Below are positions 2,524 through 53,767 of a DNA stretch of 53,767 nt, one piece after another. The translations under genes were made by a program, and so were the position numbers. Numbering within the stretch: the first letter of the stretch is position 1; every line of letters starts with the position of its first letter. Below the pieces are notes generated by a model that saw only the letters and a list, made by a program, of their open reading frames with translations, was not told the origin of the DNA and did not search any database. Origin of the DNA: Methanomicrobiales archaeon (GTDB lineage Archaea > Halobacteriota > Methanomicrobia > Methanomicrobiales > Methanomicrobiaceae); NCBI GenBank assembly GCA_013415665.1, contig JAAEEQ010000001.1, forward strand, positions 1 to 53,767, written 5' to 3'.

Positions 2524-2985
2524 TCAGATGATATGGCTGGTGATATCCTTCGTAATGACCGTATCGCAGTACAGGCAGTGGAGCCCTGCTGCCGTCACTT
2601 CAAAACTGCTCTCAATCGGTTCGCTGGTATTGGAAATGCAGCCGGGATTGGGGCAGCGGACGACACCCCGCAGGATGCCTGAGATTTCCACGCCCTTTTT
2701 CTCCGTCACCAGGTAATTCCTGATGATATTGATGGTCGCACGGGGCGCGATGAGGGCGATCCTGTTGACTTCTTCCTTGACCAGCTCGCGTTTTTCGATT
2801 TTCACGATGTCCTTCTTTCCCATGTGCTTGCTTGCCACATTGGTTGCGATGGAGAGGCATTCTTCCGTCGTTCCGGTGATGCCGAGAATCCTGAGCACAT
2901 TGAGCGCTTCTCCCGCGGTGATGTGATCGATCACCGTGCCGTCCCTGATGGGGCTCACGAGGAGGCCGGGAGGCGTCTGCTTCAT
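2524..2985 (-). CDS. pyrI: aspartate carbamoyltransferase regulatory subunit
   Basis: 153 aa. C-terminal zinc domain CPNPGC...CLYC. Overlaps pyrB by 4 nt. Confidence 0.9.
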   Translation of the reverse strand: MKQTPPGLLVSPIRDGTVIDHITAGEALNVLRILGITGTTEECLSIATNVASKHMGKKDIVKIEKRELVKEEVNRIALIAPRATINIIRNYLVTEKKGVEISGILRGVVRCPNPGCISNTSEPIESSFEVTAAGLHCLYCDTVITKDITSHII

Positions 2986-3881
2986 TGCCCCATCACCTCC
3001 TGCAGCATCGCCATCCTGACGGGGACGCCGTTTTTTGCCTGTTCGAAGTACCGGGCATAGGGCAGGTCATCCACCCGGGGGTCAATCTCTCCCGCCCGGG
3101 GCAGCGGATGGAGTATGATCAGCGAGTTTTTCACCCCCGTCAGGATTTCCGGGGTGATCCGGTAACTCTGGGCGACATTCAGGAATGATGCTGAATCAGG
3201 GAACCGTTCGCGCTGCATGCGCGTCACGTAGAGCACATCGAGCGACGGGAGAATGTCGCTCACATCCTCGTAGGCGATGACCTCCATTCCCCGCTCCTTC
3301 AGTTCGCCAAGCAGATGTTCCGGCAGTTCGAGGCCGCTCGGCGCAATGGTATGGAGGGTGACGTCGTAATGCGAGAGGGCGTAAGCAAGGGAGTGTGCCG
3401 TTCTCCCGTACCGGAGGTCACCGAGGAGGCCCACGTCGATCGCATCGAGCGGCATGGACTGGCGGATGGTGTAGAGATCCAGCAGGGTCTGTGACGGGTG
3501 CTGTCCTGCGCCGTCTCCGGCATTAATGACCGGGACGGTCGCGAACTCGCTGGCAAGGCGTGCGGCCCCCTCCCGCGGGTGCCGGAGTACAATCGCGTCG
3601 ACATACCCCGATACCACCCGGACGGTATCGGCGAGGGTTTCCCCTTTGATGATGGAGCTCCCTTCCACGCTGTCGACGCAGATGGATGCGCCGCCCAGCC
3701 GGGCGAGGGCTGAGGCAAATGACATGCGGGTGCGGGTGCTCGGCTCAAAAAAGAGAAGAGCGACCAGTTTTCCCTCAAGGCTTCGTTCGTAAACCCCCTG
3801 TGTATCGATCTCCTCCGCCCGTGCAAGCAGATTGTCGATATCTTCCCGTTCAAAGTCCTTGATCGATATGATATGGTACAT
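2982..3881 (-). CDS. pyrB: aspartate carbamoyltransferase catalytic subunit
   Basis: 299 aa with FFEPSTRTRMSF, GQHPSQ and HPLPR motifs. Confidence 0.95.
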   Translation of the reverse strand: MYHIISIKDFEREDIDNLLARAEEIDTQGVYERSLEGKLVALLFFEPSTRTRMSFASALARLGGASICVDSVEGSSIIKGETLADTVRVVSGYVDAIVLRHPREGAARLASEFATVPVINAGDGAGQHPSQTLLDLYTIRQSMPLDAIDVGLLGDLRYGRTAHSLAYALSHYDVTLHTIAPSGLELPEHLLGELKERGMEVIAYEDVSDILPSLDVLYVTRMQRERFPDSASFLNVAQSYRITPEILTGVKNSLIILHPLPRAGEIDPRVDDLPYARYFEQAKNGVPVRMAMLQEVMGQ

Positions 3882-4060
3882 GCGGATCTCTCACAGATAG
3901 GTGTGAACGTATCATACAAATCCGCTTCGAACCGGCGGGTGCAAACCCCCGCCTCTCCTGCGGACGACACCTCTGGCAGAGGATTTGCGAGTGGCCGATA
4001 ATAGATGTATGCCTCCCGTCCGCGGTCCCGGGTCGGAAAAAACGGTAAAAAGGTATGGTG

Positions 4061-5644
4061 TTATGCCGGGACATCGCCGGATTTCCCGGCAATGCGTTCC
4101 CAGAGCAGCACGCCTGCTAGTGCGACAAACGAGAGCGGGAGTGCGATTACCAGCGGGTCAACGACCTGCCACGGCATCCCGAGCACCGCATCGGCTCCGA
4201 ACAGCAGGCCTGAAAGGCCGAGCGGCTTGGATTCTGCAAGGTGCACAAAGGCGGTCCAGATGAACCAGACAGCGGCACCGACGACCAGGCTGATGATCGC
4301 TGCACGCGTCGAAGGGCGTGTGCTGTACAGGGCATGGATGTATGCCGGCAGGAAGGCGGAGGCGCACAGCCCCATGAACATGACCGTTGCGCGGGCGATT
4401 ATGCTTCCCGGGAGGCCGTATGCCACGATCACGCTCGCAATAATCATCACGACCGTCCCTATCTGGGTCACCCGCATTGAACAGCGCTCCTGGCGAATGA
4501 CCGTCCACAGGTCGTACCCGACAGCGGTTCCCATGGTGTGGAAGAGCGAGCTCAACGTGGACATCGCCGCCGCGAGGAGGGCGAGCATGAAGATAATCAC
4601 GAAGAGATCGGGCATCGAGGCATTGATGTAGGCGGGAATAATCGAGTCGATGTTTCCTCCGGCCGCCGTCAGGGCAAGCTGCCCCTGCGTCTTGATGAAA
4701 TAGACGTTCGTCAGCGCCCCCACGGTGAACGCCACGCCGGTCATCATCAGGATGAACGGCCCGCCAACGGCTACGGCGCGGTGAATGGCTTTTGTATTCG
4801 CCACCGTCATGAACCGGACGATCAGCTGCGGCTGGGCGAGTACGCCGATGCCGACGCCAAGCACGATCGAGGTTATCAGGGTCAGCCAGATCGGCGAGGC
4901 GAATGCGGGCATGGACGCCCACCCCGTGTGCCCGCCGGCGGCGAGTGAGGCGGGGATCTGATCGCTGAGGGCCTGAAGTGCCGTATGTGCTTCCACAACG
5001 CCGCCGAGGTGAATATAGGTGAGCAGGAGCAGGAGTGTCATGCCGACGAGCATGATGCCTCCCTGCAGCGCGTCGGTGTACATCACTGCAATCAGGCCGC
5101 CCAGGATGACATAGGCGGCAACGATTGCCGCAAAGCCGATGAGCGCGCTGTCATAGGGGACGTTGAGCGTTGTTTCGATGAAACGCGCACCCCCGATCAG
5201 GATTGCAGCGGTATAGAGCGGCATGCCGATGATGATGATGACACTGCTCGCCGACTGGATGAAACGCGAGCTATACTGTTTCCCCATAAGGTCCGGGAAG
5301 GTCACGGCGCCAAGCCGGTGGCCGATCTCCCGGGTCTTTTTTCCGAAGATCACGAACGCGAGCAGAATCCCGATGCCGACATTCAGCACGGTAAGCCAGA
5401 TGACGCCCATCCCGAGATACGCGGCGTACCCGCCGAACCCGACGATTGCCGAGGTGCTGATAAAGGTTGCCCCGTAGGAGAGGGCAAGCACTACGGGATG
5501 GATCTTTCTTCCGGCAACAAGGTAATCATCGTGCTCCTTTGTTTTTTTGTACCCGATGTAGCCGAGGCCGATGACCATCAGGAGGTATACTGCGGTGACG
5601 GCAACGAGGGTGAGCGGATCAACTGCCATGGTCTTCTCCGCCAT
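4061..5644 (-). CDS. sodium:solute symporter (SSS) family transporter
   Basis: 527 aa polytopic membrane protein with SSS-family-like sequence. Preceded by a small accessory ORF. Confidence 0.8.
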   Translation of the reverse strand: MAEKTMAVDPLTLVAVTAVYLLMVIGLGYIGYKKTKEHDDYLVAGRKIHPVVLALSYGATFISTSAIVGFGGYAAYLGMGVIWLTVLNVGIGILLAFVIFGKKTREIGHRLGAVTFPDLMGKQYSSRFIQSASSVIIIIGMPLYTAAILIGGARFIETTLNVPYDSALIGFAAIVAAYVILGGLIAVMYTDALQGGIMLVGMTLLLLLTYIHLGGVVEAHTALQALSDQIPASLAAGGHTGWASMPAFASPIWLTLITSIVLGVGIGVLAQPQLIVRFMTVANTKAIHRAVAVGGPFILMMTGVAFTVGALTNVYFIKTQGQLALTAAGGNIDSIIPAYINASMPDLFVIIFMLALLAAAMSTLSSLFHTMGTAVGYDLWTVIRQERCSMRVTQIGTVVMIIASVIVAYGLPGSIIARATVMFMGLCASAFLPAYIHALYSTRPSTRAAIISLVVGAAVWFIWTAFVHLAESKPLGLSGLLFGADAVLGMPWQVVDPLVIALPLSFVALAGVLLWERIAGKSGDVPA

Positions 5645-17426: not shown

Positions 17427-17499
17427 GCCCAGGTAGTGTAGAGGCCTATCATGTCGGCCTGTCACGCCGACGACTCGGATTCGAATTCCGACCTGGGCG
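17427..17499 (+). tRNA. tRNA-Asp (GTC)
   Basis: Acceptor GCCCAGG/CCTGGGC, discriminator G, anticodon loop CTGTCAC, T loop TTCGAAT. 73 nt, 17 nt downstream of tRNA-Tyr. Confidence 0.9.
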
Positions 17500-41400: not shown

Positions 41401-42327
41401 TCACCGCCGTTTTTCCTCAGCGGCAAGCATATCCTGCAGGGTCCGGGCAAGGGAGATCGACGGCTGCCAGCCGGTCACCTCGCGAATCCTGCTGATGTCC
41501 GCCACCTGCCCGGGGATCATCTCGCGGACCTGCTCCGATGCAAAGGGGATGTTCCTGCCGCGGATTTCCCCGATGCAGGCCAGGATCTCCCGCACCGATG
41601 CGCTTTTCCCCGATGCCACGTTGAATGCCCTGCCCGCGCAGGCGCTGCCGAACGAGGGGTGGGTGGCGATGCTCCAGAAGGCCGCGACGGCATCGCGCAC
41701 ATCGATGAAATCACGCCGGGAATCCATACTGTAAAGGTGCAGCCGGTCAACCGCGCCATGTTCCAGTTCGACGGTCTGGCGGATGACGGAGCCGAGTGCG
41801 AAGGCGGACGGCTGGCCCGGCCCGCAGAGGTTAAAGGGTCGCGCAACGGCGATCTGCAGGCCGTAGCGTGCGGCCGCGGCATGCGCAATGAGTTCTTCTG
41901 CCGCTTTGGCAGCACCATAGTCGCTGACCGGTGCATACGGCGCCGTTTCCGGTATAGGGCTGCCCCCGGCATACCCGTACACCGCCGCGGAGCTCACGAG
42001 CACGATCCGGGCACTGTCGGCCCCGGCGCGGGCGGCATCGAGGAGGTTGCCGGCGGCAAGGGCATTGTCGCAAAACAGCTCATCGCGGGTCCCGGAGGTT
42101 CTTCCGGCAAGGTGCAGGATGCAGTCGGGATTTGACGCCCGGATCAGTTCACGGGTTTCGCGGCTGTTGCCGAGGTCCGCGCGGATTGCCGTTCCTGAAA
42201 AAGCGGCCGGAAGCGCTGCGGTGCGGTACTGGGCGAAAAGCCGGGTGCCGGGATGGCCGTGCTCCGCGAGGAATCCGAGCAGGTTCCTGCCGGCGAATCC
42301 CGAGGCACCCGTAATAAGGACGTTCAT
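41401..42327 (-). CDS. NAD-dependent epimerase/dehydratase family protein (NDP-4-keto-6-deoxyhexose reductase-like)
   Basis: 308 aa. GASGFAG Rossmann motif and the YxxxK catalytic motif (YGAAK). Confidence 0.8.
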   Translation of the reverse strand: MNVLITGASGFAGRNLLGFLAEHGHPGTRLFAQYRTAALPAAFSGTAIRADLGNSRETRELIRASNPDCILHLAGRTSGTRDELFCDNALAAGNLLDAARAGADSARIVLVSSAAVYGYAGGSPIPETAPYAPVSDYGAAKAAEELIAHAAAARYGLQIAVARPFNLCGPGQPSAFALGSVIRQTVELEHGAVDRLHLYSMDSRRDFIDVRDAVAAFWSIATHPSFGSACAGRAFNVASGKSASVREILACIGEIRGRNIPFASEQVREMIPGQVADISRIREVTGWQPSISLARTLQDMLAAEEKRR

Positions 42328-42942
42328 ACGAGGAACCTGTCCCGGTAGGTCTCGAACTCCTCTATCGAGCGTTCGTAATCGTCGGGACGCCCGATATCGA
42401 GCCAGTAGCCGTCGTAGGGATAGCTGAACACGCCCTCTCCCGCATCGATCAGGGCATACATCAGGTCATCGAACCCGAATGCGCGTCCCTCCGGCACATA
42501 CTCCAGGATACCGCGATCGAAGACGTACACGCCCATGCTCACGCTGAAATGGTACACCGGCTTTTCACGGAATGCCCGGATCCTGTTTTCGGCATCGTAT
42601 TCGAGCACGCCGAAGTCGATCGGCACGTCCCTCCGGTAGGTCGCAACGGTAGCGAGCGCGCCGGACTGCCGGTGAACCGCCATGAGGTCGCGGTAATCGA
42701 TATCGGTGAGGATGTCGCCGTTCATGACGAGAAATCCTGCCCGGTGAATCGAGGTACGCGCGGATGATCTCGTGCAGATAGCCTGTGCTTATGACGATGT
42801 CGTCAAAGCCGCACCGGTTGAGCTGGCGGAGAATTACTTCGAGTATCGGGTAATCGCCGATGGGCATGAGCGGTTTTGGCAGAACGGTGGTATAGGGTTT
42901 GAGCCTTCTGCCCCGGCCTCCGGCAAGGATAATCGCCTGCAT
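42324..42942 (-). pseudogene. sugar-phosphate nucleotidyltransferase, internally deleted and frameshifted
   Basis: The N-terminal 64 aa (MQAIILAGGRGRRLKPYTTVLPKPLMPIGDYPILEVILRQLNRCGFDDIVISTGYLHEIIRAYL) are in one frame (track ORF 42565..43008). The C-terminal part (FLVMNGDILTDIDYRDL...EKP...GYWLDIG) is in another frame (track ORF 42324..42725). The roughly 35-40 residues that normally carry the PLGTAG-type motif between these blocks are absent. Confidence 0.75.
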
Positions 42943-42952
42943 TTGGTTTACC

Positions 42953-43939
42953 TCAGACAGTGTACAGCCCCGGCTTGTACCGGGCAAGGTGGTCGCGCAT
43001 CCATGCAATCGTGCGGTCGATTCCCTCTTCGAGAGAATACGAGGGCGTCCAGCCGATGCACTCCCTCGCTTTTCTGTTGTCGCAGATCAGGGTCATCACT
43101 TCGCTCTTTTCCGGCCTGATGCGCTGCTGATCGGCAACGATCGCTGCATCGGGATTGACGCGCCGGATAATCAGATCGGCCAGCTCCCCGATGGTCACCC
43201 CCCGCCCGCTGCCCGCGTTGACGGTCTCGCCGACTGCCCCGGGCGCCGCGGCAATCTTTACAAATGCCGAGACGGTGTCGGCAACATAGGTGAGGTCGCG
43301 AACGGGATCGAGCGATCCGAGCCTGACGGTGTCGGAGGTGAGCGCCTGCGTGATGATCGTCGGGATGACGGCGCGGGTTGACTGGCGGGGGCCGAAGGTG
43401 TTGAAGGGCCGGAGGGTGGCGACCGGAACGCCGAAGGATCGGAAGAACGATTCGGCGATTTTGTCTGCCCCGATCTTGGTTGCCGAGTAGGGGGACTGCC
43501 CCTGCAGCGGGTGCTTCTCGTCAATCGGCGTGTATTGCGCCGTGCCGTAGACTTCACTGGTCGAGGTGTGCACGACGCGGGAAACCCCGGACTCGCGAGC
43601 CGCCTGCAGGACGTTTAAGGTGCCGGTGATGTTGGTGGCAACATACGACGCGGGCGCATGGTACGAATAGGGAATGCCGATGAGGGCTGCGAGGTGAAAG
43701 ACCACGTCCGTATCCTTCATGCAGGCGCGGACAGCTCCGCCGTCCGCAATATCCCCGGCAAACACCTCAATGGGGCTTTCGCCGCCGGCAATGCTCTCCA
43801 GCATTCCCCAGTCGTTGCGCGAATTGTAATGCACAAAGGCCGTGACATCGGCTCCTTCTGTGACAAGGCGCTCGACGAGGTGGCTGCCGATGAATCCCCC
43901 GGCACCCGTGACCAGCACCTTCTTTCCGTTCCAGTTCAT
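42953..43939 (-). CDS. NDP-hexosamine/hexose 4,6-dehydratase, LegB-like extended SDR
   Basis: 328 aa. GAGGFIGSH, HYNSRNDWGMLE, GQSPYSATKIGADKIAESFFRSFGVPVATLRPFNTFGPRQSTRAVIPTIITQAL. From memory this closely resembles Campylobacter LegB-type dehydratases. Confidence 0.75.
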   Translation of the reverse strand: MNWNGKKVLVTGAGGFIGSHLVERLVTEGADVTAFVHYNSRNDWGMLESIAGGESPIEVFAGDIADGGAVRACMKDTDVVFHLAALIGIPYSYHAPASYVATNITGTLNVLQAARESGVSRVVHTSTSEVYGTAQYTPIDEKHPLQGQSPYSATKIGADKIAESFFRSFGVPVATLRPFNTFGPRQSTRAVIPTIITQALTSDTVRLGSLDPVRDLTYVADTVSAFVKIAAAPGAVGETVNAGSGRGVTIGELADLIIRRVNPDAAIVADQQRIRPEKSEVMTLICDNRKARECIGWTPSYSLEEGIDRTIAWMRDHLARYKPGLYTV

Positions 43940-45021
43940 GCGCTATTTCCCCTGTACTGTTTGATGAGGGCTGAATAATCGTTTTCTGCGGTGTTCATGA
44001 GTGTTTCCCAGTCCCCGGACTCCTCAACCTTCGTTCGTGCCCGCTCGCCGAATGCTTTGCGTCTTTCTTCGTCGCGAGCGAGCATTAACATTTTTTCCGC
44101 GACATCGCCGGGATTTCCCGGTTCGATCAGCAGGCCGTTGCCGCCGTCCTCGATCCACTCGGGAATGCCGCCGACGGCGGTGGCAATGCAGGGAAGCCCC
44201 GCCGCCATCGCTTCGAGCAGAGAGACGGGCGTGCCGTCCGACCGTGCGGTGGTGATGAAGATGTCCGCCGCGTGCAGGTCGCGTGGCACGTCGGCATAGT
44301 CGCCCCACGGCAGAAAAGAGACCGCATGCGCTATGCCAAGCGTTTGCACGCGATCGCGGACCGCCTCTTTTTCGGGCCCCTCGCCTTTCAGGACGAGGGA
44401 GAGTGACGGTTCTTCGCGGTACGCCAGTGCAAATCCCTCGACAAGTGTTGTCATGTCATAGACCGGCAGAAACCCCCGGTTTGAAAACAGGACGATGCGT
44501 TCACGGTTTTCCGCCTTTTTCTGCGGGAAAAAAATCGAGGTATCGACGCCGAACGGGAGATGTTTCACCTTTTCCTCCGGGACCCCGAAATCCGCGACAA
44601 TCCTGTTCCTGATATCCCGGGAGACCGCATACACGAGATCGGCCCGTGCCAGTGCGAACCGGGTTGCCATCTTAAGAAGGACGCTCTGCGGCGGGAGCAC
44701 CAGCACGTCGTCCCCCCATGCCGAGATTACGGTCGGTGAAAATCCGAGAAAAGCAGCGTGAAAACCGAATTTCGTGATAAAATGCGCATGAACCAGATCC
44801 GGGCGGATATGCCGGACGAGCCGCATGATCCGGACATGCCGCGGCCAGAAGGCGGTATATAATCCCGGAAGCGACGTTGCCAGCACGTGCTCCGTCACCC
44901 CGGGGATGCTCCTGCCCATCGGTTCGTAGGTGATGAGGTGCACGTCGTGCCGCCCGGCGAAGTATGCACTCCAGCGCTGCGTATGGACGCTTCGCCCGTC
45001 GGCGATGATACAGAGCCTCAT
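43936..45021 (-). CDS. glycosyltransferase family 4 (GT-B, group 1)
   Basis: 361 aa. C-terminal E(x7)E-type region (SLLEAMAAGLPCIATAVGGIPEWIEDGGNGLL). Confidence 0.85.
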   Translation of the reverse strand: MRLCIIADGRSVHTQRWSAYFAGRHDVHLITYEPMGRSIPGVTEHVLATSLPGLYTAFWPRHVRIMRLVRHIRPDLVHAHFITKFGFHAAFLGFSPTVISAWGDDVLVLPPQSVLLKMATRFALARADLVYAVSRDIRNRIVADFGVPEEKVKHLPFGVDTSIFFPQKKAENRERIVLFSNRGFLPVYDMTTLVEGFALAYREEPSLSLVLKGEGPEKEAVRDRVQTLGIAHAVSFLPWGDYADVPRDLHAADIFITTARSDGTPVSLLEAMAAGLPCIATAVGGIPEWIEDGGNGLLIEPGNPGDVAEKMLMLARDEERRKAFGERARTKVEESGDWETLMNTAENDYSALIKQYRGNSA

Positions 45022-45216
45022 GAATCCGCCTCGTCCCGGTCCGGGGATGATGGTACGTGTTTCATCTCAAGGCTCATCTTTCTTCTGTTATCCTCATCGG
45101 CGGTGCCCGTTTTCGGGTTTTTCCCCGGCAGCAGCAGCGTTCCCGAACCGACGCCCCCGTTCGGCTGCCGCCCGATCAGAGGGCTCATAATGATCGAAAG
45201 AAAAACGTTCTGTGGA

Positions 45217-47052
45217 ATGTGCGGAATTACCGGGCAGTATGCGTTTGGGGGAGGCGAACCGGACGAAGATCTGGTCCGGCGGATGTCTTCCCTCCTTGCC
45301 CATCGCGGGCCCGACGGCGAAGGCTTCCTCCGCCGGGGATCCGTTGCGCTTGCCCATCGCCGCCTTTCGATCATCGACCTGAGCGATCAGGCGGGCCAGC
45401 CCATGAAAAACGAGGACGGGACGCTCGCGATCGTGTTCAACGGGGAGATCTATAATTACCGGGAACTGCGGGAGGAACTCACCGCCAGCGGCCACAACTT
45501 CCGGTCCGAAAGCGATACCGAGGTCATCATCCACGCGTTCGAGGAGTGGGGTTGTGAATGCCTGCAGCGGTTCAACGGCATGTGGGCATTTGCCCTCCAT
45601 AACGCCACGACCGGCGAACTCTTCTGCGCCCGCGACCGTTTCGGCATCAAGCCATTCTACTACGCGAACACGGGAGAATCGCTTTTTTTTGCGTCTGAGA
45701 TAAAGGCGCTCCTCGAGCATGACGGCATCGGTCGTGAGCCGAACGACCGGATGGTGATGACGTTTCTTGCCTGGGGTGTTATGGACCACACCCCGGAGAC
45801 GATGTTTAAAGGCGTTTTCCAGATTCCCCCGGGGCATTTCATGCTGGTCCGTCCCGGGGCCTGCCTTCCGCCGGAAGCATACTGGCACCTGCACATGGAG
45901 CCGGCGCCGGTATCCTCCCCGGGGGCGGACAGCGCCACCGTTGCACGCTGCCGCGATCTTCTTCTTGATGCGGTGCGGATCCGGCTTCGGAGCGACGTCC
46001 CGGTCGGGACCTGCCTGTCCGGCGGGATCGATTCGACAACGATCACGTCTGTCATCAACGGGCTTATCAGAACGGAATCGCCTGAAAGTGTCGGAGAGCG
46101 TCAGAATACGTTTTCCGCACGGTACGCCGGGGCAGCATGCGACGAGGGGATCTTTATGGACTGCGTTGTCGCCGAAACCGGCGTCTCCCCCCACTGGACG
46201 CAGCCCGACCCGGAACATCTTCTGCCCAGCATCGAACGGATGCTCTATCACCAGGACGAGCCGTTCGGATCGCTCTCGATATATGCGCAGTACGCGGTGA
46301 TGGAGCTTGCCGGCAGGTCCGTCAGGGTCGTCCTTGACGGGCAGGGGGCGGACGAGCAGCTCGGCGGGTATCTCGCGTATCTCGTCCCGTACATCCGGAG
46401 CCTGAAGCGGCACCCGCTCCGGGCTGTCGGGGAAGGGGGATGGGCACTCTACCGGCACTGGCGGTTCCTGCTTGCCGCCTGGCGCCAGCTGCGCATCCGT
46501 TCAGGGCGGCGCTCCCTGCTTTCGGGCGAGTACCCCGCAATCGACCGGTACGCGGGACCCCTCGATCAGGTGCTGGCGGCGGAGATAGCGAGCACGAACC
46601 TTCCCGCACTCCTGCACTACGAGGACCGGAACTCGATGGCGTTCTCCGTCGAGGCGCGGGTGCCGTTCCTTGACTGGCGGCTGGTCGAATTTTTCGCTTC
46701 GCTGCCGCTCGACCAGAAGATCCGGCACGGTGTGACGAAGTATATACTCAGGAAGGCTGTCAGGGGCGTGATCCCGGAGAAAGTCCGGTGCCGGATGGAC
46801 AAAATCGGGTTCGCGACACCCGAGGATGAGTGGATGCGCCGTGAACTGAGGGAGTTCATCGGCTCTGTCCTGTCGTCATCATCGTTCGGTTCGCGGCCGT
46901 ACTGGAACCCGGAGGCGGTGCGCCGCGGTTTTGAGGAGTATGCGGCGGGCAGGATGCCGTATTCCTTCGAAATCTGGCGGATCGTGTGCACCGAACTCTG
47001 GCTGCGGATGTTTTTTGACAACCGGGGAAACGCGGCTGGCCGGGTGCGCTGA
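45217..47052 (+). CDS. asparagine synthase (glutamine-hydrolysing) family amidotransferase
   Basis: Start set at MCGITG, because the Ntn glutaminase needs Cys2. PP-loop SGGIDS. 611 aa. The track's longer N-terminus overlaps the GT4 gene and is rejected. Confidence 0.85.
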   Translation: MCGITGQYAFGGGEPDEDLVRRMSSLLAHRGPDGEGFLRRGSVALAHRRLSIIDLSDQAGQPMKNEDGTLAIVFNGEIYNYRELREELTASGHNFRSESDTEVIIHAFEEWGCECLQRFNGMWAFALHNATTGELFCARDRFGIKPFYYANTGESLFFASEIKALLEHDGIGREPNDRMVMTFLAWGVMDHTPETMFKGVFQIPPGHFMLVRPGACLPPEAYWHLHMEPAPVSSPGADSATVARCRDLLLDAVRIRLRSDVPVGTCLSGGIDSTTITSVINGLIRTESPESVGERQNTFSARYAGAACDEGIFMDCVVAETGVSPHWTQPDPEHLLPSIERMLYHQDEPFGSLSIYAQYAVMELAGRSVRVVLDGQGADEQLGGYLAYLVPYIRSLKRHPLRAVGEGGWALYRHWRFLLAAWRQLRIRSGRRSLLSGEYPAIDRYAGPLDQVLAAEIASTNLPALLHYEDRNSMAFSVEARVPFLDWRLVEFFASLPLDQKIRHGVTKYILRKAVRGVIPEKVRCRMDKIGFATPEDEWMRRELREFIGSVLSSSSFGSRPYWNPEAVRRGFEEYAAGRMPYSFEIWRIVCTELWLRMFFDNRGNAAGRVR

Positions 47053-47090
47053 AAAAAGCACTAAGTTATCGAACCGCCAACAGAGTACGA

Positions 47091-47981
47091 ATGACCAAGG
47101 ACAGCCCCTCTCCCCCCCGGTGCATACTGTGCGGCGGCACGCGGTTTGTGCAGGTGCATGATCGTGTCCGCTACGGGACCGCAACGCAGCCGTACCAGTG
47201 CGCTGACTGCGGGCTCGTTGCACTCCGGCCCTTGCCGACGCCACAGGAGGAAGAGCATTTCTATGCGGGGGAGTACCGCTCCCTGTACGAGGATGCGGAT
47301 CCCGCGGGTGCGTTCGCCAGCAGCCTTCCCGAGGCGCAGGAACGAGCCGGGCGGTTCCTCGGCCTGCTGGATCCGGAGCATGACGTCCTTGAGATCGGCT
47401 GTTCCGCCGGGTATTTTCTGCATGCGATCCGCTCGCAGGTCGGATCCGTGACCGGGGTGGATCCCGACGTCAGGTGTGCGGAATACGCCCGGAACGCCGG
47501 CATGGAGGTGTACCCCTCCATTGACACGCTTGCTTCCCGTACGTTCGACAGGATTTTCATGTTCCACGTGCTCGAGCATATTCGCGATCCCGTCGGATTT
47601 CTGCGGCAGGTAAAAGGCCTGCTTGCGCCCGGGGGAAAACTCATCATCGAGGTCCCCAACGTCGAGGACGCACTGGTCTCGGTCTATCATGTGCCGGCTT
47701 ACCTCGATTTCTACTGGCAGCCGGCCCATTCCTACTATTTTTCGCACCGGACGCTTGCCCGGGTGCTGGCATGTGCGGGAATGCGGGGGGAGGTGTTCCC
47801 CCTCCAGCGCTACGATCTCTCCAACCATCTCTGCTGGATGCTTTCCGGAAAGCCCGGGGGGCAGGGGCATTTTAACGATCTCTTCACCCCGGAACTGAAT
47901 AATGCGTATGCCGATTGCCTGAAGCGCCGCTTCGTGTGCGATACCATATATACAATTGCAGAAATAGATAACAGGGGATAA
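47091..47981 (+). CDS. class I SAM-dependent methyltransferase with N-terminal zinc ribbon
   Basis: 296 aa. CILCGG...CADCG and SAM motif I (VLEIGCSAGYFL). Confidence 0.8.
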   Translation: MTKDSPSPPRCILCGGTRFVQVHDRVRYGTATQPYQCADCGLVALRPLPTPQEEEHFYAGEYRSLYEDADPAGAFASSLPEAQERAGRFLGLLDPEHDVLEIGCSAGYFLHAIRSQVGSVTGVDPDVRCAEYARNAGMEVYPSIDTLASRTFDRIFMFHVLEHIRDPVGFLRQVKGLLAPGGKLIIEVPNVEDALVSVYHVPAYLDFYWQPAHSYYFSHRTLARVLACAGMRGEVFPLQRYDLSNHLCWMLSGKPGGQGHFNDLFTPELNNAYADCLKRRFVCDTIYTIAEIDNRG

Positions 47982-47987
47982 TGCTGC

Positions 47988-48818
47988 ATGGAATCCGGAA
48001 ATTATGACAATCTAAACGAAATAGCAACCCGTCTCCGGCGTCATATCCTGGAAATGACTGCCCGGGCAGGATCGGGACATTACATGAGCTCGTTCAGCTG
48101 CGTGGAAATCCTTGCGGCGCTTTATTTTCAGGAGATGCAGGTCCGGCCCGACGATCCTGCATGGCCGGGGCGGGACCGCTTCGTGCTCGGCAAAGGCCAT
48201 GCCGCACCGGCGCTGTATGCCGTGCTGGCGGAGCGCGGCTATTTTCCCGTTCCCGAACTGATGACGCTCCGGCAGGTGGGAAGCCGGCTGCAGGGGCATC
48301 CGGTGAAAAGCTACGGCCTTCCCGGGCTTGATGCCTCCTCCGGATCGCTCGGGCAGGGCATCTCCACCGCCGTCGGCATCGCCCTTGCAGCGCAACTCGA
48401 CGGGGCGGACTGGCGTGTTTTTGTCCTGCTCGGGGACGGGGAGTGCCAGGAGGGGCAGGTCTGGGAAGCGGCGATGGCGGCGGCGCATTTCAAGTGCGAC
48501 AATCTGGTGGTCATCGTGGATTACAATGCGCTCCAGTCGACGGGGACACTCGACGAGATCATGTCACTGGGCGATCTGCGGGCAAAATGGGAAGCATTCG
48601 GGTGGAGCGTCACGGAGGCCCGGGGCCATGATTTCGGCTCGCTCCAGGATGCGTTGGCCGGAGCACGAGCCCGAAAAGGAATGCCCCACCTGATCCTCGC
48701 GCATACGATGAAAGGGCACGGTGTCCCGTTCATCGAGGGCAATCTCGAGTACCATTCAAAACCGCTCTCGGCCGACGAACTTGCGGGAGCACTGCATGCT
48801 CTGGAGGTGCGGCACTGA
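47988..48818 (+). CDS. transketolase, N-terminal (TPP pyrophosphate-binding) subunit
   Basis: 276 aa. GSGHYMSSFS, GKGHAAPALYA and GDGECQEG motifs of split transketolases. Confidence 0.85.
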   Translation: MESGNYDNLNEIATRLRRHILEMTARAGSGHYMSSFSCVEILAALYFQEMQVRPDDPAWPGRDRFVLGKGHAAPALYAVLAERGYFPVPELMTLRQVGSRLQGHPVKSYGLPGLDASSGSLGQGISTAVGIALAAQLDGADWRVFVLLGDGECQEGQVWEAAMAAAHFKCDNLVVIVDYNALQSTGTLDEIMSLGDLRAKWEAFGWSVTEARGHDFGSLQDALAGARARKGMPHLILAHTMKGHGVPFIEGNLEYHSKPLSADELAGALHALEVRH

Positions 48819-49768
48819 TGTACGACCTCAATGTCTGCTCGCACAACCGCGAGGCATACGGGCGTGCCCTCGTCGAACTCGGCAGCACCAATCCGGACGT
48901 GGTGGTTCTGGACGCCGACCTCTCCACATCGACAAAAACATCGATTTTTGCCGAGCGCTTTCCCGAGCGGTTCATCGACGTGGGGATCGCGGAACAGAAC
49001 CTTCTCGATATCGCAGCCGGCCTTGCCCTTTCCGGGAAAATCCCGTTCGTAAGCACGTTTTCGATCTTCGGCTGCGGGCGCGGATGGGAGCAGATACGAA
49101 ACACCATCGCGATGGACTCGATCAACGTCAATATCGTCTGCACCCATGCGGGGCTGAGCCTCGGCGGCGACGGCGCAACGCACCAGGCACTGGAGGATAT
49201 CGCCATCATGCGTGCGATTCCCAACATGCAGGTGATAGTGCCCGCCGATCCCGTCGAAACCCGGGCCGTGGTGCAGTACGCCGCAGCCTATCAGGGCCCC
49301 GTCTATATCCGCCTCTCCCGCAGGCGGTCGCCGCATCTCTTCGATGCCGCGGGGTACCGGTTCGATCCGAAGTCCTACCCCGTCCTCCGGGAGGGCGACG
49401 ACGTGACGATCCTCTCGACCGGCAACATGATCAGAAAAGCCCTGAAAGCTGCGGAATGCCTCGCTGAAGACGGCATCTCCGCGGGCGTGGTGAACGTCCA
49501 CACCATCAAGCCGCTCGCGCGGGATGCCATCTGTTCGATTGCGAAAAAAACGCCGGCAATCGTGACCCTCGAAGAGCACAACGTCATCGGCGGCCTCGGG
49601 AGTGCCGTTGCGGAATGCCTCGTCCAGGACTGCCCGGTCCCGATGAGGATCATCGGCGTCGAGGATCGCTTCGGCTGCTCGGGCAGGGTCGACGAGCTCT
49701 TCGAAAAATTCAACTTAACCCCGGCCCACGTCGCCGGGGTCGTGAAAAACCTGGTTCGGGAGAGGTGA
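48818..49768 (+). CDS. transketolase, C-terminal (pyrimidine-binding) subunit
   Basis: 316 aa. FIDVGIAEQN and GGDGATHQALEDIA. TGATG overlap with the N-terminal subunit. Confidence 0.85.
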   Translation: MYDLNVCSHNREAYGRALVELGSTNPDVVVLDADLSTSTKTSIFAERFPERFIDVGIAEQNLLDIAAGLALSGKIPFVSTFSIFGCGRGWEQIRNTIAMDSINVNIVCTHAGLSLGGDGATHQALEDIAIMRAIPNMQVIVPADPVETRAVVQYAAAYQGPVYIRLSRRRSPHLFDAAGYRFDPKSYPVLREGDDVTILSTGNMIRKALKAAECLAEDGISAGVVNVHTIKPLARDAICSIAKKTPAIVTLEEHNVIGGLGSAVAECLVQDCPVPMRIIGVEDRFGCSGRVDELFEKFNLTPAHVAGVVKNLVRER

Positions 49769-49773
49769 AGGAA

Positions 49774-50427
49774 ATGGAGATTTTTCTGGACACGGCTGAT
49801 ATTGATGAGATTCGGAAGTACGCGAGCGTGATCGACGGCGTCACCACCAACCCTTCGCTGGTTGCCGCACAGGGCGGCCGCTTTTCGTTTAATGACCTGA
49901 TCAACGAAATTGCCGCTGAAATCCCCGGGCCGATCAGCGTCGAGGCGGTGAGCCATACGGCAGACGAGATGGTCGAGGAAGGAAGGGCCCTTGCCGGGTT
50001 GTCCCCGAATATCGTGATCAAACTGCCGATGACGGAGGCGGGCCTCGCGGCAACGCGCCGGCTGCAGGCAGAGGGCATTCCCGTGAATGTCACCCTGATC
50101 TTCTCCGCGAACCAGGCATTTCTTGCAGCGAAGGCCGGCGCCTCCTACGCGAGCATCTTTGTCGGGCGCCTCGACGACATCGGCCATGACGGCATGCAGG
50201 TTGTGGAGGATGCCGTCACGGTCATGAAGAACTACGATTTCCCCACAAAGGTGCTAACGGCGAGCATCCGCCACCCGATGCACGTCCTCCGGGCCCTCAA
50301 AGCGGGATCGCAGGTTGCCACCATCCCCCCGAACGTGCTCGCGCAGCTCTACCGCCATCCGCTGTCGGACGCAGGGCTCGAAAAATTCCTTGCCGACTGG
50401 CAGCGCATGCAGGACGGGGGGCGATAA
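49774..50427 (+). CDS. transaldolase / fructose-6-phosphate aldolase family (short TalC/FSA type)
   Basis: Start at MEIFLDTADIDEI. Has VTTNPSL, a Schiff-base Lys context (IVIKLP) and SIFVGR. Confidence 0.85.
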   Translation: MEIFLDTADIDEIRKYASVIDGVTTNPSLVAAQGGRFSFNDLINEIAAEIPGPISVEAVSHTADEMVEEGRALAGLSPNIVIKLPMTEAGLAATRRLQAEGIPVNVTLIFSANQAFLAAKAGASYASIFVGRLDDIGHDGMQVVEDAVTVMKNYDFPTKVLTASIRHPMHVLRALKAGSQVATIPPNVLAQLYRHPLSDAGLEKFLADWQRMQDGGR

Positions 50428-50431
50428 GCCC

Positions 50432-51010
50432 ATGCGGGAGGGCATTACTTCCGCATTTCGGGAGCACCTTTCCGTTCTCGGCGCCGTCGCCGCTGATGAA
50501 CGGCTGGTCGATGCGATAGCGGCCGTTGCCGGCTGCATTGCCGGCTCGTTCGAGGGCGGCAACCGGGTCTACCTGTTCGGGTGCGGGGGCTCGGCGGCCG
50601 ACGCGCAGCATATTGCAGCCGAATTCGTCAACAAACTGAAAATGATGCGCAAAGGGCTGCCCGCTGCAGCACTCACCACCGACACATCCGTGCTGACGGC
50701 CATCGGCAATGATGTGTCGTTCGACCGTATCTTCTCCCGGCAGGTCGAATCGTTCGTATCGGCAGGCGATGTCGTTGTCGGGATCAGCACGAGCGGCACA
50801 TCCCCCTCCGTCGTCAACGGCCTGTCGGCTGCAAAGGAGCTTGGCGCAACAACGGTTCTGCTGACCGGCTCTGCCGTAACCGGCATTCCGGGTGTCACCG
50901 ACTATACCATTTCGGTGCCCTCGCGCGAAACACCGAGAGTTCAGGAAGCGCATATCGTGATAGCACACATCATCTGCGAACTGGTGGAGGAATCGCTCTT
51001 TGCACGATAA
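50432..51010 (+). CDS. SIS-domain phosphosugar isomerase, GmhA (sedoheptulose-7-P isomerase)/PtmF-like
   Basis: 192 aa. GCGGSAADAQHIAAEF, LTAIGNDVSFDRIFSRQV, GISTSGTSPSV and QEAHIVIAH follow the GmhA pattern. Confidence 0.75.
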   Translation: MREGITSAFREHLSVLGAVAADERLVDAIAAVAGCIAGSFEGGNRVYLFGCGGSAADAQHIAAEFVNKLKMMRKGLPAAALTTDTSVLTAIGNDVSFDRIFSRQVESFVSAGDVVVGISTSGTSPSVVNGLSAAKELGATTVLLTGSAVTGIPGVTDYTISVPSRETPRVQEAHIVIAHIICELVEESLFAR

Positions 51011-51491
51011 TACGGCGCAGGCCATCGCACGCATCCGCCTGCTGGTCTGCGATTTCGACGGGGTGCTCACCGACAACCGCGTGTACGTGGATCAGGACGG
51101 CAGGGAAATGGTGGCGTGCAACCGGAGCGACAGCCTCGGCATCGAACTCCTGCGCCGGGAGGCGGGTATCGAAACCGTCGTGATATCCAAGGAGAAGAAC
51201 GCCGTTGTGCAGGCGCGGTGCGATAAAATGCGGATTTCATGCTGCCACGGCATTGATGACAAGGTGCCGGTCCTCGAGACCCTGGCCCGCGAGCGGGGCA
51301 TCGCCCTGTCGGAGATCGCCTACATCGGCAACGATGTGAATGACCTCGAATGCATGCGGCGGTGCGGGCTCGGTGTCGCGGTTGCCGATGCGCACCGGCT
51401 GGTGCTCGACGAAGCGGACGTAATCCTGCGGAAAAACGGCGGATGCGGTGCCGTCCGGGAATTTATTGATATGCTTGTAGAGAGAAAGTAA
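51000..51491 (+). CDS. KdsC-type (C0) HAD phosphatase (ulosonate-phosphate phosphatase-like)
   Basis: 163 aa. DFDGVLTD (DxDxT), ISKEKN and GNDVNDL. Overlaps the SIS gene by 11 nt. Confidence 0.8.
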   Translation: MHDNTAQAIARIRLLVCDFDGVLTDNRVYVDQDGREMVACNRSDSLGIELLRREAGIETVVISKEKNAVVQARCDKMRISCCHGIDDKVPVLETLARERGIALSEIAYIGNDVNDLECMRRCGLGVAVADAHRLVLDEADVILRKNGGCGAVREFIDMLVERK

Positions 51492-51492
51492 G

Positions 51493-52335
51493 GTGAAGAA
51501 AATGGGTGTTTTTATCATTGCCGAGATCGGCATCAACCATAACGGGGATATCGGGATTGCAAAACGGTTAATCGACATGGCCGTCGCTGCCGGCTGCGAT
51601 GCGGTCAAATTCCAGAAGAGGACGATCGATGTCGTGTATACCCCGGAAACGCTCAGCGCACCCCGGGAGAGCCCGTGGGGGACGACCCAGCGCGAACAGA
51701 AGGAAGGGCTCGAGTTCGGCGAGGCCGGGTACGATGAAATCGACCGGTACTGCCGGGAAAAGGGAATCATCTGGTTTGCGTCGGCGTGGGACGAGGAAAG
51801 CCAGCGGTTCCTCGCAAAATACCATCTGCAGTATAACAAGGTTGCCTCGGCGATGCTCACCAATATCGCGTTCCTCGAGGTTGTCGCACGGGAACGGCGC
51901 CATACTTTCATCTCAACGGGCATGAGCTCGCTCGATGATATCGATCGCGCCGTTGCGGTTTTCGAAAAAGCCCAGTGCCCGTACTCCCTGCTTCACTGCG
52001 TCTCGACCTATCCTTCCGGGGATGCCGAGATCAATCTCGCGGTGATGGACACTCTTCGCGAGCGCTATGGCTGCGAAATCGGCTACAGCGGGCACGAGGC
52101 CGATATTCTGGCATCCATCGTCGCCGTATCGCGGGGTGCGGCGGTCATCGAGCGGCATATCACGCTCGATCGGACCATGTACGGCAGCGATCAGGCTGCT
52201 TCGCTGGAGGCCGGTGATCTTGAAGCGATGGTCAGCGCCATCCGCCGGATACCGGTTATCATGGGGGCCGGGGAAAAGACCGTCTCCGAACGGGAAGCGG
52301 CTGTTGCAAAAAAACTGCGGTATTTCACCGTGTAA
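51493..52335 (+). CDS. NeuB-family PEP-condensing ulosonic/nonulosonic acid synthase lacking the SAF domain
   Basis: IIAEIGINHNG, DAVKFQ, HCVSTYP, GYSGHE and ERHITLD. 280 aa from the GTG at 51493 (an ATG at 51502 is an alternative). The protein ends right after the TIM barrel. Confidence 0.8.
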   Translation: MKKMGVFIIAEIGINHNGDIGIAKRLIDMAVAAGCDAVKFQKRTIDVVYTPETLSAPRESPWGTTQREQKEGLEFGEAGYDEIDRYCREKGIIWFASAWDEESQRFLAKYHLQYNKVASAMLTNIAFLEVVARERRHTFISTGMSSLDDIDRAVAVFEKAQCPYSLLHCVSTYPSGDAEINLAVMDTLRERYGCEIGYSGHEADILASIVAVSRGAAVIERHITLDRTMYGSDQAASLEAGDLEAMVSAIRRIPVIMGAGEKTVSEREAAVAKKLRYFTV

Positions 52336-52341
52336 TGTGGG

Positions 52342-53328
52342 ATGGCAATGTCCGGCATCGAACGACAGGTATTCTTCAACGGGGCCTTTGTTCCCGAATC
52401 ACAGGCCCGCATCTCGATTTACGATTCCGCCCTGATGTTCGGGGATATGGTCTTTGAGATGACCCGGTCCTTTAACAAGGAGCAGTTCAAGCTGCGCGAG
52501 CATCTGGAACGGCTCTATGCCTCCATAAAATACGTCCACATCCCCATCGAGATGACGATCGACGAGATGGAAGAGAACGTCTACAAAACAATCGAGATCA
52601 ACGATCCGCTCTTCGCCGACGATGACGAGCACCGGGTGATGATCAACGTGTCCCGCGGCCTGCTCTCCATCTACCAGGACGTCGTCGGGGTAGAGAAAGG
52701 GACGAATGTCATTATCGCCGATTTTCCCCTCCGGTGGACGGTCTCGTCCATGGCGGAGTATTACGACACCGGGATCAATGCCGTCATTCCCTCCCAGCGG
52801 GCAATCCCTGCCTGGCTGCTCGAGCCCAAGGTGAAAAACAGGAGCAGGCTGCATTACCTCATGGCGAACATCGAGGTGTCGAACTACAGCGGGTCGAACA
52901 ACTGGGCGCTGCTGCTCGATCCGGACGGTTTCGTCGCCGAAGGCACCGGGGACAATTTCTTCATCGTCAAAGACGGGGCGCTGTACACGCCGGAGCCCCG
53001 CAATATCCTGCGGGGGATCAGCAGGCAGTACATCATCGAGGAGCTCGCCCCCGCACTCGGCATTCCCTGCCGTGAGCAAAACCTCGAACTCTATGACGTG
53101 ATGACGGCCGACGAGGCGTTCTTTACCGGAACCCCGTTCTGCATCATGCCGGCAACCCAGATCAACAGCACGGATATCGGCAGCGGATCCATGGGGGAGA
53201 TCACGCGAACGCTGCTTCGTCGGTGGGGTGAGAACGTTGGCGTGGATATCATTGCACAGATAAAGGCCTACGGCAAATCCCGGAAAGAGGATTACCGTGC
53301 CCCCTCGCCCTACTCCTTCAAAAAATAA
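52342..53328 (+). CDS. fold-type IV (class IV, BCAT / D-amino-acid aminotransferase-like) PLP aminotransferase
   Basis: 328 aa with class-IV pattern: FEMTRSF, a catalytic-Lys region (EPKVKNRSRL), EGTGDNFFIV, RGISR and FFTGT. Confidence 0.75.
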   Translation: MAMSGIERQVFFNGAFVPESQARISIYDSALMFGDMVFEMTRSFNKEQFKLREHLERLYASIKYVHIPIEMTIDEMEENVYKTIEINDPLFADDDEHRVMINVSRGLLSIYQDVVGVEKGTNVIIADFPLRWTVSSMAEYYDTGINAVIPSQRAIPAWLLEPKVKNRSRLHYLMANIEVSNYSGSNNWALLLDPDGFVAEGTGDNFFIVKDGALYTPEPRNILRGISRQYIIEELAPALGIPCREQNLELYDVMTADEAFFTGTPFCIMPATQINSTDIGSGSMGEITRTLLRRWGENVGVDIIAQIKAYGKSRKEDYRAPSPYSFKK

Positions 53329-53352: not shown

Positions 53353-53767
53353 CTACCAGCAGGTTCGTCCGCCGTCGATGATGACCGTGCTGCCGGTCAT
53401 GTAGGATGAGGCATCCGAGACCAGGAAGAGAACCGCCGCCTTATACTCCCCCTGCCGCGCCATCCTGCCGAGCGGGATTAATTCCGAGAGTTTATGCACG
53501 AATTCTTCCGGCTGGTCACGGTACACGCCGCCCGGGCAGAGCGCATTGGCGCGGACGCCCGCCGCCGCCCAGTAGGTGGCGCAGTATTTTGTCAGGCCGA
53601 TGAGCCCGTGCTTGATGACCGAATAGGTCACCGGCTTGACCGGTTGGCAGGATTCGGGAACACCTTCTTTACGGTAAATCCGCTGGTCCGGTGCAATAAT
53701 GCCGAGATCCGAGGAGATATTGAGGATAACACCGCGTGAACGCCCGGCCATGGCAGTGCCGAAGATC
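53353..53767 (-). CDS. short-chain dehydrogenase/reductase (SDR), C-terminal part; gene continues beyond the right edge
   Basis: NISS...YSVIKHGLIGLTK (YxxxK)...NALCPGG. The reading frame stays open upstream of the track's Met, to the window end. Confidence 0.8.
   Translation of the reverse strand, partial: IFGTAMAGRSRGVILNISSDLGIIAPDQRIYRKEGVPESCQPVKPVTYSVIKHGLIGLTKYCATYWAAAGVRANALCPGGVYRDQPEEFVHKLSELIPLGRMARQGEYKAAVLFLVSDASSYMTGSTVIIDGGRTCW

Follow-up and report, generated by a model that had tools for sequence, protein, structure and literature searches.

What is a methanogen doing with transketolase and transaldolase genes placed directly beside a gene for a NeuB-like synthase? This question is raised by a contig of a Methanomicrobiales archaeon (GenBank assembly GCA_013415665.1, contig JAAEEQ010000001.1), which was analysed over its entire length of 53,767 nt (the window) and which carries an array of nine plus-strand genes at positions 45217-53328. 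The original prediction, made from the letters alone, had read this array as an operon that joins non-oxidative pentose-phosphate enzymes to an ulosonic-acid synthase module and had described it as a self-contained route. On the basis of gene content, gene order and protein family, it now appears quite probable that the array belongs to a CMP-ulosonic-acid pathway which starts from a sugar phosphate and for which transketolase and transaldolase would supply the precursor. The more specific proposal, that the product is a ten-carbon (C10) ulosonic acid, has about an even chance of being right, or slightly less.

All nine open reading frames were found at the coordinates given by the original prediction, and the domain identities that it had assigned were confirmed by Pfam and NCBIfam profile scores, which were read against curated cutoffs and on which the gene calls rest. 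The array opens with an AsnB-like glutamine amidotransferase (611 aa, 45217..47052; Asn_synthase 1.1e-76 with GATase_7/6) and a class I S-adenosylmethionine (SAM) methyltransferase with an N-terminal four-Cys ribbon (296 aa, 47091..47981; Methyltransf_23 1.7e-22). These are followed by the N-terminal, thiamine diphosphate (ThDP)-binding half of a transketolase (47988..48818; Transketolase_N 2e-50), its C-terminal half, with the Pyr and C domains (48818..49768; Transket_pyr 1.1e-48, Transketolase_C 2.8e-31), and a short-type transaldolase of the TAL_FSA kind (217 aa, 49774..50427; TIGR00875 277.8 against a cutoff of 245.95). The last four genes encode a GmhA-like sedoheptulose-7-phosphate isomerase of the SIS family (192 aa, 50432..51010; SIS_2 and GmhA-type matches), a HAD phosphatase of the KdsC subfamily (163 aa, 51000..51491; TIGR01670 116.3 against 106.95), a NeuB-family phosphoenolpyruvate (PEP)-condensing synthase without the antifreeze-like (SAF) domain (280 aa, 51493..52335; PF03102 9.7e-72), and a class IV aminotransferase (328 aa, 52342..53328; Aminotran_4 1.4e-46). 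The junctions are as tight as had been claimed: in order, gaps of 38 and 6 nt, a 1-nt TGATG overlap, gaps of 5 and 4 nt, an 11-nt overlap between the SIS and HAD genes, and gaps of 1 and 6 nt. The nine genes would presumably be transcribed together. The database entry for the NeuB protein (P0001, 277 aa) starts from the ATG at 51502, not from the GTG at 51493, which is why the 280-aa form has no exact-sequence database match.

The strongest evidence that these genes belong together comes from related genomes. The order transketolase N, transketolase C, transaldolase, SIS, HAD or radical SAM, NeuB is found again in six further loci from methanogens and anaerobic methanotrophic (ANME) archaea: Methanoplanus limicola (L001), Methanoregula (L003), Methanolobus (L087, beside AglB), Ca. 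Methanoperedens (L090) and two metagenomic contigs (L091 and L092). The six core proteins are 49-67% identical to their window counterparts across these loci, and the flanking genes differ. The first three loci were reached through relatives of NeuB, and L090-L092 were chosen from relatives of the transketolase C-half, regardless of NeuB. Because the block is thus found from the transketolase side as well, the adjacency of its genes is not due to chance. The overlap of the SIS and HAD genes is likewise conserved in five loci (11 nt in the window and L001; 8 nt in L003, L091 and L092). The predicted link between the pentose-phosphate genes and the synthase module therefore holds across Methanomicrobiales and Methanosarcinales, with the gene order retained, and in none of the loci examined did the transketolase and transaldolase genes lie apart from the module. 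L091 and L092 are flanked, at 3902-4813 and 1980-3513 respectively, by ArdC-N/MPTase-PolyVal, DUF6876 and MTH865 genes, which hints that the cluster lies beside, or moves with, a mobile element.

The description of the array as a self-contained route did not survive this comparison. L091 has the layout of the window from the methyltransferase to the class IV aminotransferase, and it then continues with an AP_endonuc_2 gene, two short-chain dehydrogenases/reductases (SDRs), a CMP-transferase (CTP_transf_3) and a transferase of the LIC12162 family, a family whose member in L001 scores 716 bits with TIGR04331. CTP_transf_3 is present in all six archaeal relatives, and none was detected in the window by tblastn. 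Since the relatives continue past NeuB and the aminotransferase, what the window contains is the first half of a longer pathway. Its contig ends 439 nt beyond the ninth gene, inside a convergent PtmA-like SDR gene (53353..53767, minus strand) that begins 24 nt past the array, with stretches of six A and of seven T in between. This SDR is 70% identical (tblastn) to the second SDR of the Methanoplanus cluster, itself a below-cutoff match to PRK09186 (173.5 bits) and FlagModPtmA (114.9 bits), and it belongs to the same pathway as the array.

One position of the block varies. In Methanolobus (L087, 9166-9963) and Methanoperedens (L090, 10204-11001), a 265-aa radical SAM/SPASM gene replaces the phosphatase directly upstream of NeuB. 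A radical SAM/SPASM gene also immediately precedes NeuB on an Omnitrophota contig (L089, 9069-9941), and the proteins of the three loci measure 265-290 aa. No informative NCBIfam match was obtained for these neighbours.

What, then, would transketolase and transaldolase provide? With the transketolase model NF004559, the N-half scores 312.1 bits (positions 14-281) and the C-half 281.2 bits (positions 319-625), a sum of 593 against a cutoff of 488. The closest relatives of the C-half are methanogen and ANME proteins (59-89% identity), followed by split transketolases of Firmicutes (55-58%). The transaldolase scores 217-223 bits against the solved transaldolases of Thermoplasma, Thermotoga and Bacillus, compared with 125 bits against the fructose-6-phosphate aldolase (FSA) of Escherichia coli. 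Its translation also has Glu in 'SVEAV' and Phe in 'SIFVGR', residues which we take to separate transaldolases from fructose-6-phosphate aldolases, and by these sequence features it classifies as a true short transaldolase rather than as FSA. Such enzymes are not expected in this host: archaea generally lack transketolase and transaldolase and obtain pentoses via the ribulose monophosphate route, and Methanospirillum hungatei has no transketolase, sedoheptulose bisphosphatase or ribulose-phosphate epimerase (Kono et al., 2017, PMC5241800). In all seven archaeal loci (the window and its six relatives), the two activities are tied into the block.

Transketolase and transaldolase by themselves can convert two fructose-6-phosphate and one ribose-5-phosphate into two sedoheptulose-7-phosphate and one glyceraldehyde-3-phosphate, without leaving a dead-end by-product. 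They can also convert ribose-5-phosphate and glyceraldehyde-3-phosphate into two erythrose-4-phosphate. This stoichiometry, which besides sedoheptulose-7-phosphate allows erythrose-4-phosphate or xylulose-5-phosphate as output, leaves room for a shorter acceptor, either erythrose-4-phosphate or a pentose-5-phosphate, from which NeuB, standing in for a DAHP or Kdo-8-phosphate synthase, would form a DAH- or Kdo-like acid of seven or eight carbons. A phosphatase of the KdsC type would suit this idea, as would the NeuB-HAD pairs that lie amid housekeeping genes in Gastranaerophilales. We nevertheless regard it as quite unlikely. Erythrose-4-phosphate needs no ketose-aldose isomerase, yet the SIS gene is constant in the archaeal block, which favours sedoheptulose-7-phosphate as the output. 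The SIS protein, moreover, has no CBS domains and is thus of the GmhA type and not of the KdsD type, and a NeuB homologue from P. parvum, discussed below, rejected arabinose-5-phosphate (PMC6200933).

The GmhA-like nature of the SIS protein, as proposed by the original prediction, was borne out at the level of the active site. The protein matches B. pseudomallei GmhA (2XBL) with an E-value of 5.7e-52 and 48% identity over an alignment with five gap columns. The window protein keeps residues H64, E68, Q175 and H183 and the motif S-T-S-G-x-S, as do at least 25 of the 27 cluster-linked SIS proteins; from the B. pseudomallei structure, we assume that these are the zinc and catalytic residues and the phosphate-binding motif. 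The protein scores below the GmhA equivalog cutoffs (PRK13936, 165.7 against 276; TIGR00441, 161 against 209.45). In lincomycin biosynthesis, the transaldolase LmbR and the GmhA-like isomerase LmbN lead to octose-8-phosphate, and by analogy transaldolase and SIS could build an octose-8-phosphate that NeuB extends to a C11 acid. We consider this highly improbable: bacterial loci of the family hold the SIS gene without a dedicated transaldolase, and the transaldolase of the array resembles ordinary short transaldolases. PtmF, which had been named earlier as a possible counterpart of the SIS protein, was discarded because it is described as a 326-aa oxidoreductase (PMC4481668); the resemblance to a Ptm protein, namely PtmA, lies instead with the downstream SDR.

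For the HAD protein, membership of the KdsC subfamily follows from its TIGR01670 score, as had been predicted. It remains below the KdsC equivalog (129.5 against 208) and below the KDN-9-P phosphatase equivalog (116.7 against 180, where the B. thetaiotaomicron enzyme used as a control scores 264), and it is 35% identical to the B. thetaiotaomicron Kdn-9-P phosphatase. Some bacterial loci encode a larger HAD of 361-368 aa (L088, 10909-12015; L093, 14862-15947) with an extra domain of about 200 aa before the KdsC-like domain, the KdsC-like part having been scored in the L088 copy only. The L093 protein has a weak resemblance to a nucleotidyltransferase (NTP_transf_3, E 0.0025).

The NeuB protein covers PF03102 in full (model positions 1-241 of 241). 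It has no SAF domain, its match to NeuB_NnaB (TIGR03569, 263.1 against 399.65) ends at model position 273 of 329, and it falls below the PseI equivalog as well (TIGR03586, 182 against 340.25); by these scores it does not group firmly with the legionaminic (Leg) or pseudaminic (Pse) acid synthases. Its residues aligned with E25, K53, Q55, K129, H215, E234 and H236 of N. meningitidis NeuB (1XUU) are all identical, and these positions presumably include the metal-binding histidines and the catalytic and PEP-binding residues in that numbering. The one characterised SAF-less relative is the Kdn-9-P synthase of P. parvum, which, as translated from the supplement of PMC6200933, is SAF-less, 312 aa long and 31% identical to the window NeuB, has the sequence KFQKR, and accepts only mannose-6-phosphate (PMC6200933). 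The two proteins have in common the FQKR motif, in each case within KFQKR, and a PRESPWGTTQREQKEGLEF loop, with the loops aligned as …YGDTYGAHREFLEF against …WGTTQREQKEGLEF over a 3-residue gap. Of 71 family members, 69 have FQKR, which is absent from 6NCS, classical NeuB, PseI and SpsE. Together with the SAF-less build and the likeness of the HAD protein to a Kdn-9-P phosphatase, these shared features argue that NeuB acts on a terminally phosphorylated aldose, in agreement with the original prediction of a sugar-phosphate user. The closest solved structure, the short NeuB of Leptospira (6NCS), was rejected as a functional proxy, as it has neither FQKR nor the loop and is uncharacterised. With the P. 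parvum protein as query, a search for homologues gave, among the matches listed, only relatives of 73-99% identity, mostly algal or unlabelled, and NCBIfam has no model for Kdn-9-P synthase.

The same comparison brings in the possibility of a nine-carbon (C9) Kdn-type acid, formed by NeuB from PEP and mannose-6-phosphate. The GmhA-like protein would then be a fructose-6-phosphate to mannose-6-phosphate isomerase, or dispensable, and transketolase and transaldolase would be pentose-phosphate genes that happen to be housed in the island. The strict specificity of the only characterised SAF-less FQKR NeuB, the likeness of the HAD proteins, and a Bacteroidota locus (L005) that has no SIS gene and has a ManC-type gene nearby are all consistent with such a product. 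The C2 manno configuration that results from GmhA chemistry is also the one needed to convert fructose-6-phosphate to mannose-6-phosphate. However, the SIS protein is nearly gapless against a true GmhA and keeps its active-site residues, so that a near-canonical GmhA would have to act on a hexose. Fructose-6-phosphate, moreover, is already at hand in methanogens, which would leave transketolase and transaldolase without a role although they are bound to the block in every archaeal locus. Given also that the HAD protein is under the KDN-9-P phosphatase cutoff and that NeuB is distant from the Kdn enzyme, a Kdn-type product seems rather unlikely, and a heptose-7-phosphate acceptor with a C10 product is preferred.

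How far does this gene set extend beyond the host? It is not confined to this organism: SIS-HAD-NeuB forms a module that is widespread in bacteria and archaea, to which transketolase and transaldolase are a methanogen-specific addition. A pattern scan of GTDB representatives returned at least 600 matches, at least 592 of which encode a relative of the SAF-less NeuB, and 80 loci from many phyla were kept; identity between archaeal and bacterial members is 65-69%. Neighbours were counted in the 46 GTDB-representative loci, among the matches listed, in which NeuB is flanked on either side by 6 kb or more. Within 8 kb of NeuB, a GmhA-like SIS gene is found in 22 of these loci, a KdsC-like HAD gene in 28 (any HAD in 33), CTP_transf_3 in 21, and transketolase in only two; by a rough estimate, a single-copy gene would lie within 8 kb of any given gene by chance in less than 1% of cases. 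SIS, HAD, CTP_transf_3, AP_endonuc_2 and PtmA-like SDR neighbours recur in both main clades of the NeuB tree (tblastn matrix and tree). The lineages with an in-cluster SIS gene include Lachnospiraceae, Actinobacteria, Chloroflexi, Peregrinibacteria, Nitrosopumilaceae and methanogens, and the association hence spans Gram-positive, candidate phyla radiation (CPR) and archaeal lineages. Transketolase and transaldolase occur near NeuB almost only in methanogens, with one Phycisphaerae locus having a more divergent split transketolase and neither transaldolase nor SIS.

Two further arrangements were seen in bacteria. An acetolactate-synthase-like ThDP enzyme of about 600 aa is encoded in eleven of the NeuB clusters, from Lachnospiraceae and several other bacterial loci, and in most Lachnospiraceae loci it directly follows NeuB-HAD-SIS. 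It represents, after transketolase, another type of ThDP enzyme associated with the module. In Gastranaerophilales (Melainabacteria), a NeuB-HAD pair lies among housekeeping-type genes, without tailoring genes (twelve loci of this type), next to a sensor kinase, a conserved 265-aa protein and, in some loci, an aspartokinase. This pair may have a different, possibly core, role.

A third explanation is that two unrelated pathways share one glycan island, with transketolase, transaldolase and GmhA leading to an NDP-heptose and NeuB and HAD to a separate ulosonic acid. Glycan loci often mix sugar pathways, and the window itself contains, on the opposite strand upstream of the array, a sugar-1-phosphate nucleotidyltransferase (42324-43008) and a LegB-like 4,6-dehydratase (42953-43939; TIGR04180 452.6 against a cutoff of 475). 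A plasmid of Azospirillum thermophilum likewise sets the module divergently beside a complete Leg cluster equipped with a SAF-bearing NeuB and a cytidylyltransferase of its own; there, LegB is directly divergent from the SAF-less NeuB. However, the Pfam content of the seven archaeal blocks includes no heptose kinase, no GmhB-type phosphatase and no heptose nucleotidyltransferase of the HddC/HldE type, and with no other outlet for a heptose in these blocks NeuB is the only evident consumer of heptose-7-phosphate. The SIS gene shares 8-11 nt with the HAD gene in five loci and adjoins NeuB and HAD in many unrelated phyla, and the nucleotidyltransferase of the window is split over two reading frames. 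Two separate pathways therefore appear unlikely, and a single route through heptose-7-phosphate to a C10 acid is retained as the preferred reading.

A divergent intergenic region of 195 nt (45022..45216), the sole long non-coding gap adjoining the array and presumably its promoter region, separates it from a GT4 glycosyltransferase gene (43936-45021, minus strand). A scan for promoters and terminators found nothing above shuffled sequences, with a consensus that is bacterial and not applicable to an archaeal host. Beyond the glycosyltransferase, the dehydratase and the nucleotidyltransferase comes an epimerase/reductase (41401-42327, minus strand); like the GT4 gene and the nucleotidyltransferase, it was called from Pfam and NCBIfam. 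The two nucleotidyltransferase frames overlap (N-terminal part 42565-43008, C-terminal part 42324-42725), which points to a frameshift, a pseudogene or an error of assembly. No LegC, LegH or LegG gene was found near the LegB-like dehydratase, the rest of the window not having been annotated gene by gene. The divergent genes (41401..45021) probably serve a second sugar of the same glycan and lie outside the conserved block. HisRS and topoisomerase VI genes, typical of an archaeon, are located upstream in the window, and its only tRNA gene is tRNA-Asp (GTC; 17427-17499, plus strand).

Several observations weigh against a C10 product. The SIS, HAD and NeuB proteins are all under the NCBIfam equivalog cutoffs, and the only characterised SAF-less relative of NeuB, at 31% identity, gives a C9 product from mannose-6-phosphate. 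The stoichiometry of transketolase and transaldolase could equally yield erythrose-4-phosphate. In about half of the bacterial loci, no SIS gene lies within 8 kb of NeuB, and the radical SAM/SPASM gene that takes the place of the phosphatase in Methanolobus and Methanoperedens is left unexplained by the scheme.

In the proposed pathway, each substrate and product of which is a prediction from protein family, the split transketolase and the transaldolase would convert the fructose-6-phosphate, glyceraldehyde-3-phosphate and ribose-5-phosphate of the host into sedoheptulose-7-phosphate, which is reportedly not otherwise made by methanogens. The GmhA-like isomerase would turn this into D-glycero-D-manno-heptose-7-phosphate, which the SAF-less NeuB would condense with PEP to 3-deoxy-dec-2-ulosonate 10-phosphate, one CHOH unit beyond Kdn-9-phosphate, and the KdsC-type phosphatase would remove the terminal phosphate. 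A hydroxyl group may then be oxidised by the PtmA-like SDR and its partners, or in some loci by the radical SAM enzyme, and transaminated, by the class IV aminotransferase or, in other loci, by a class III enzyme together with a glyoxalase-fold protein. The methyltransferase and the AsnB-like enzyme would add methylation and amidation, and CMP activation by CTP_transf_3 and transfer by a LIC12162-family enzyme would be encoded past the end of the contig, as in the relatives.

For these tailoring steps, the comparison of loci offers some guidance. The AsnB-like protein scores above its family cutoff (TIGR01536, 449 against 267) and begins with Met-Cys-Gly; such genes are sporadic in related loci (four cases), and the enzyme is probably a tailoring one that forms an amide. 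The methyltransferase has N-terminal CxxC pairs (CILC...CADC), and its homologues (28-52% identity) adjoin the transketolase N-half or NeuB/CTP_transf_3 in all six archaeal relatives. In a Phycisphaerae locus (L030, 9669-11081), CTP_transf_3 and Methyltransf_23 are fused in one gene, which links the methyltransferase of the cluster with the CMP-sugar step. The aminotransferase is below every cutoff for branched-chain amino acid aminotransferases and D-amino-acid transaminases; homologues with 64-76% identity occupy the same position in nine loci, including L091, and its probable role is the amination of the sugar acid at an oxidised position. The other five archaeal relatives have in its place a class III aminotransferase (Aminotran_3) followed by a glyoxalase-fold protein. 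The class IV enzyme and the class III set were never seen in one locus, and they may be alternative solutions for one amination step. Genes for B12-binding radical SAM enzymes also recur (L003, 2974-6117; L030, 5696-9523; L088, 1-1365 and 4339-5907). Such enzymes are usually C-methyltransferases, and C-methylation is another way to lengthen a sugar backbone.

If heptose-7-phosphate is indeed the acceptor, the module would provide a route to ten-carbon sialic-acid-like sugars, a class beyond Kdo (eight carbons) and the sialic acids (nine carbons), and there is a realistic chance that the finding defines a new sugar class. The broader proposal, that SIS-HAD-NeuB is the missing genetic basis of C10 ulosonic acids in methanogens, ANME archaea, Nitrosopumilaceae, SAR11, Lachnospiraceae, Chloroflexi, Acidobacteria and many other lineages, and that methanogens acquired transketolase and transaldolase solely to feed it, remains tentative, its chances falling a little short of even. 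The family is found in abundant environmental and gut lineages (SAR11, ammonia-oxidising archaea, methanogens, Lachnospiraceae) about whose surface glycans little is known, and phage recognition and surface charge would be influenced by such sugars. The cluster would also exemplify transketolase and transaldolase kept solely as a private supply of a glycan precursor in a host otherwise without the non-oxidative pentose-phosphate pathway.

In the literature searched, no description was found of a GmhA-NeuB pathway, of a C10 ulosonate pathway or of this gene set. The only mention of higher-carbon ulosonic acids found there is a 2026 preprint on SugarBase, which reports CMP-activated C10 alpha-keto acids in Magnetospirillum gryphiswaldense without assigning genes. 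These compounds bear two N-acetyl groups, and they may arise differently from the route proposed for the module.

Among the known systems, the CMP-Kdn pathway (B. thetaiotaomicron BT1713-BT1715 and P. parvum) is similar in combining a SAF-less NeuB synthase that joins a sugar phosphate to PEP, a KdsC-type HAD phosphatase and a CMP-transferase. As described, however, it consists of the synthase, the phosphatase and the CMP-synthetase only (PMC6200933), whereas the cluster adds a GmhA-like isomerase, transketolase and transaldolase (in methanogens), an aminotransferase, SDRs, AP_endonuc_2 and methyltransferases, and its predicted acceptor is one carbon longer. The Kdo pathway (KdsD, KdsA, KdsC, KdsB) follows the same logic of ketose-phosphate isomerisation, aldol condensation with PEP, dephosphorylation and CMP activation; here, in contrast, the isomerase is of the GmhA type and not KdsD (SIS with CBS), and the synthase belongs to the NeuB family and not to KdsA/DAHPS. 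The animal Neu5Ac-9-phosphate route (NANS, NANP, CMAS) likewise joins a phosphosugar to PEP and continues with a HAD phosphatase and CMP activation. NANS, which we assume to have an FQK motif and a WG-T-containing loop, differs from the window NeuB in its C-terminal SAF domain and in its substrate, ManNAc-6-phosphate, which is provided by an epimerase/kinase absent here.

The NDP-heptose pathway (GmhA, HldE/HddA, GmhB, HddC) also has GmhA as its first enzyme, but in the conserved block the kinase, GmhB and the heptose-1-phosphate nucleotidyltransferase are missing, and the isomerase has NeuB and the KdsC-like HAD as neighbours instead. With the legionaminic and pseudaminic acid pathways (LegB/C/H/G/I/F and PseB/C/H/G/I/F), the cluster shares PEP condensation by the NeuB family, CMP activation, a PtmA-like SDR and a LegB-like dehydratase nearby. 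LegI and PseI, however, have SAF domains and use non-phosphorylated diacetamido-trideoxyhexoses, and the cluster is neither a Leg nor a Pse pathway.

The recruitment of transketolase- or transaldolase-type enzymes from central metabolism to make an unusual aldose phosphate that is extended later has precedents in the split transketolase Rif-Orf15 of 3-amino-5-hydroxybenzoic acid (AHBA) biosynthesis and in LmbR/LmbN. In contrast to these enzymes of actinomycete antibiotic pathways, the ordinary-looking transketolase and transaldolase of the array appear to provide the host with a normal metabolite that it lacks. Compared with the common logic of the Kdo, Kdn and Neu5Ac-9-phosphate pathways, the parts that differ are the entry through GmhA, a NeuB-family synthase in the place of KdsA, the supply by transketolase and transaldolase, and the large tailoring set.

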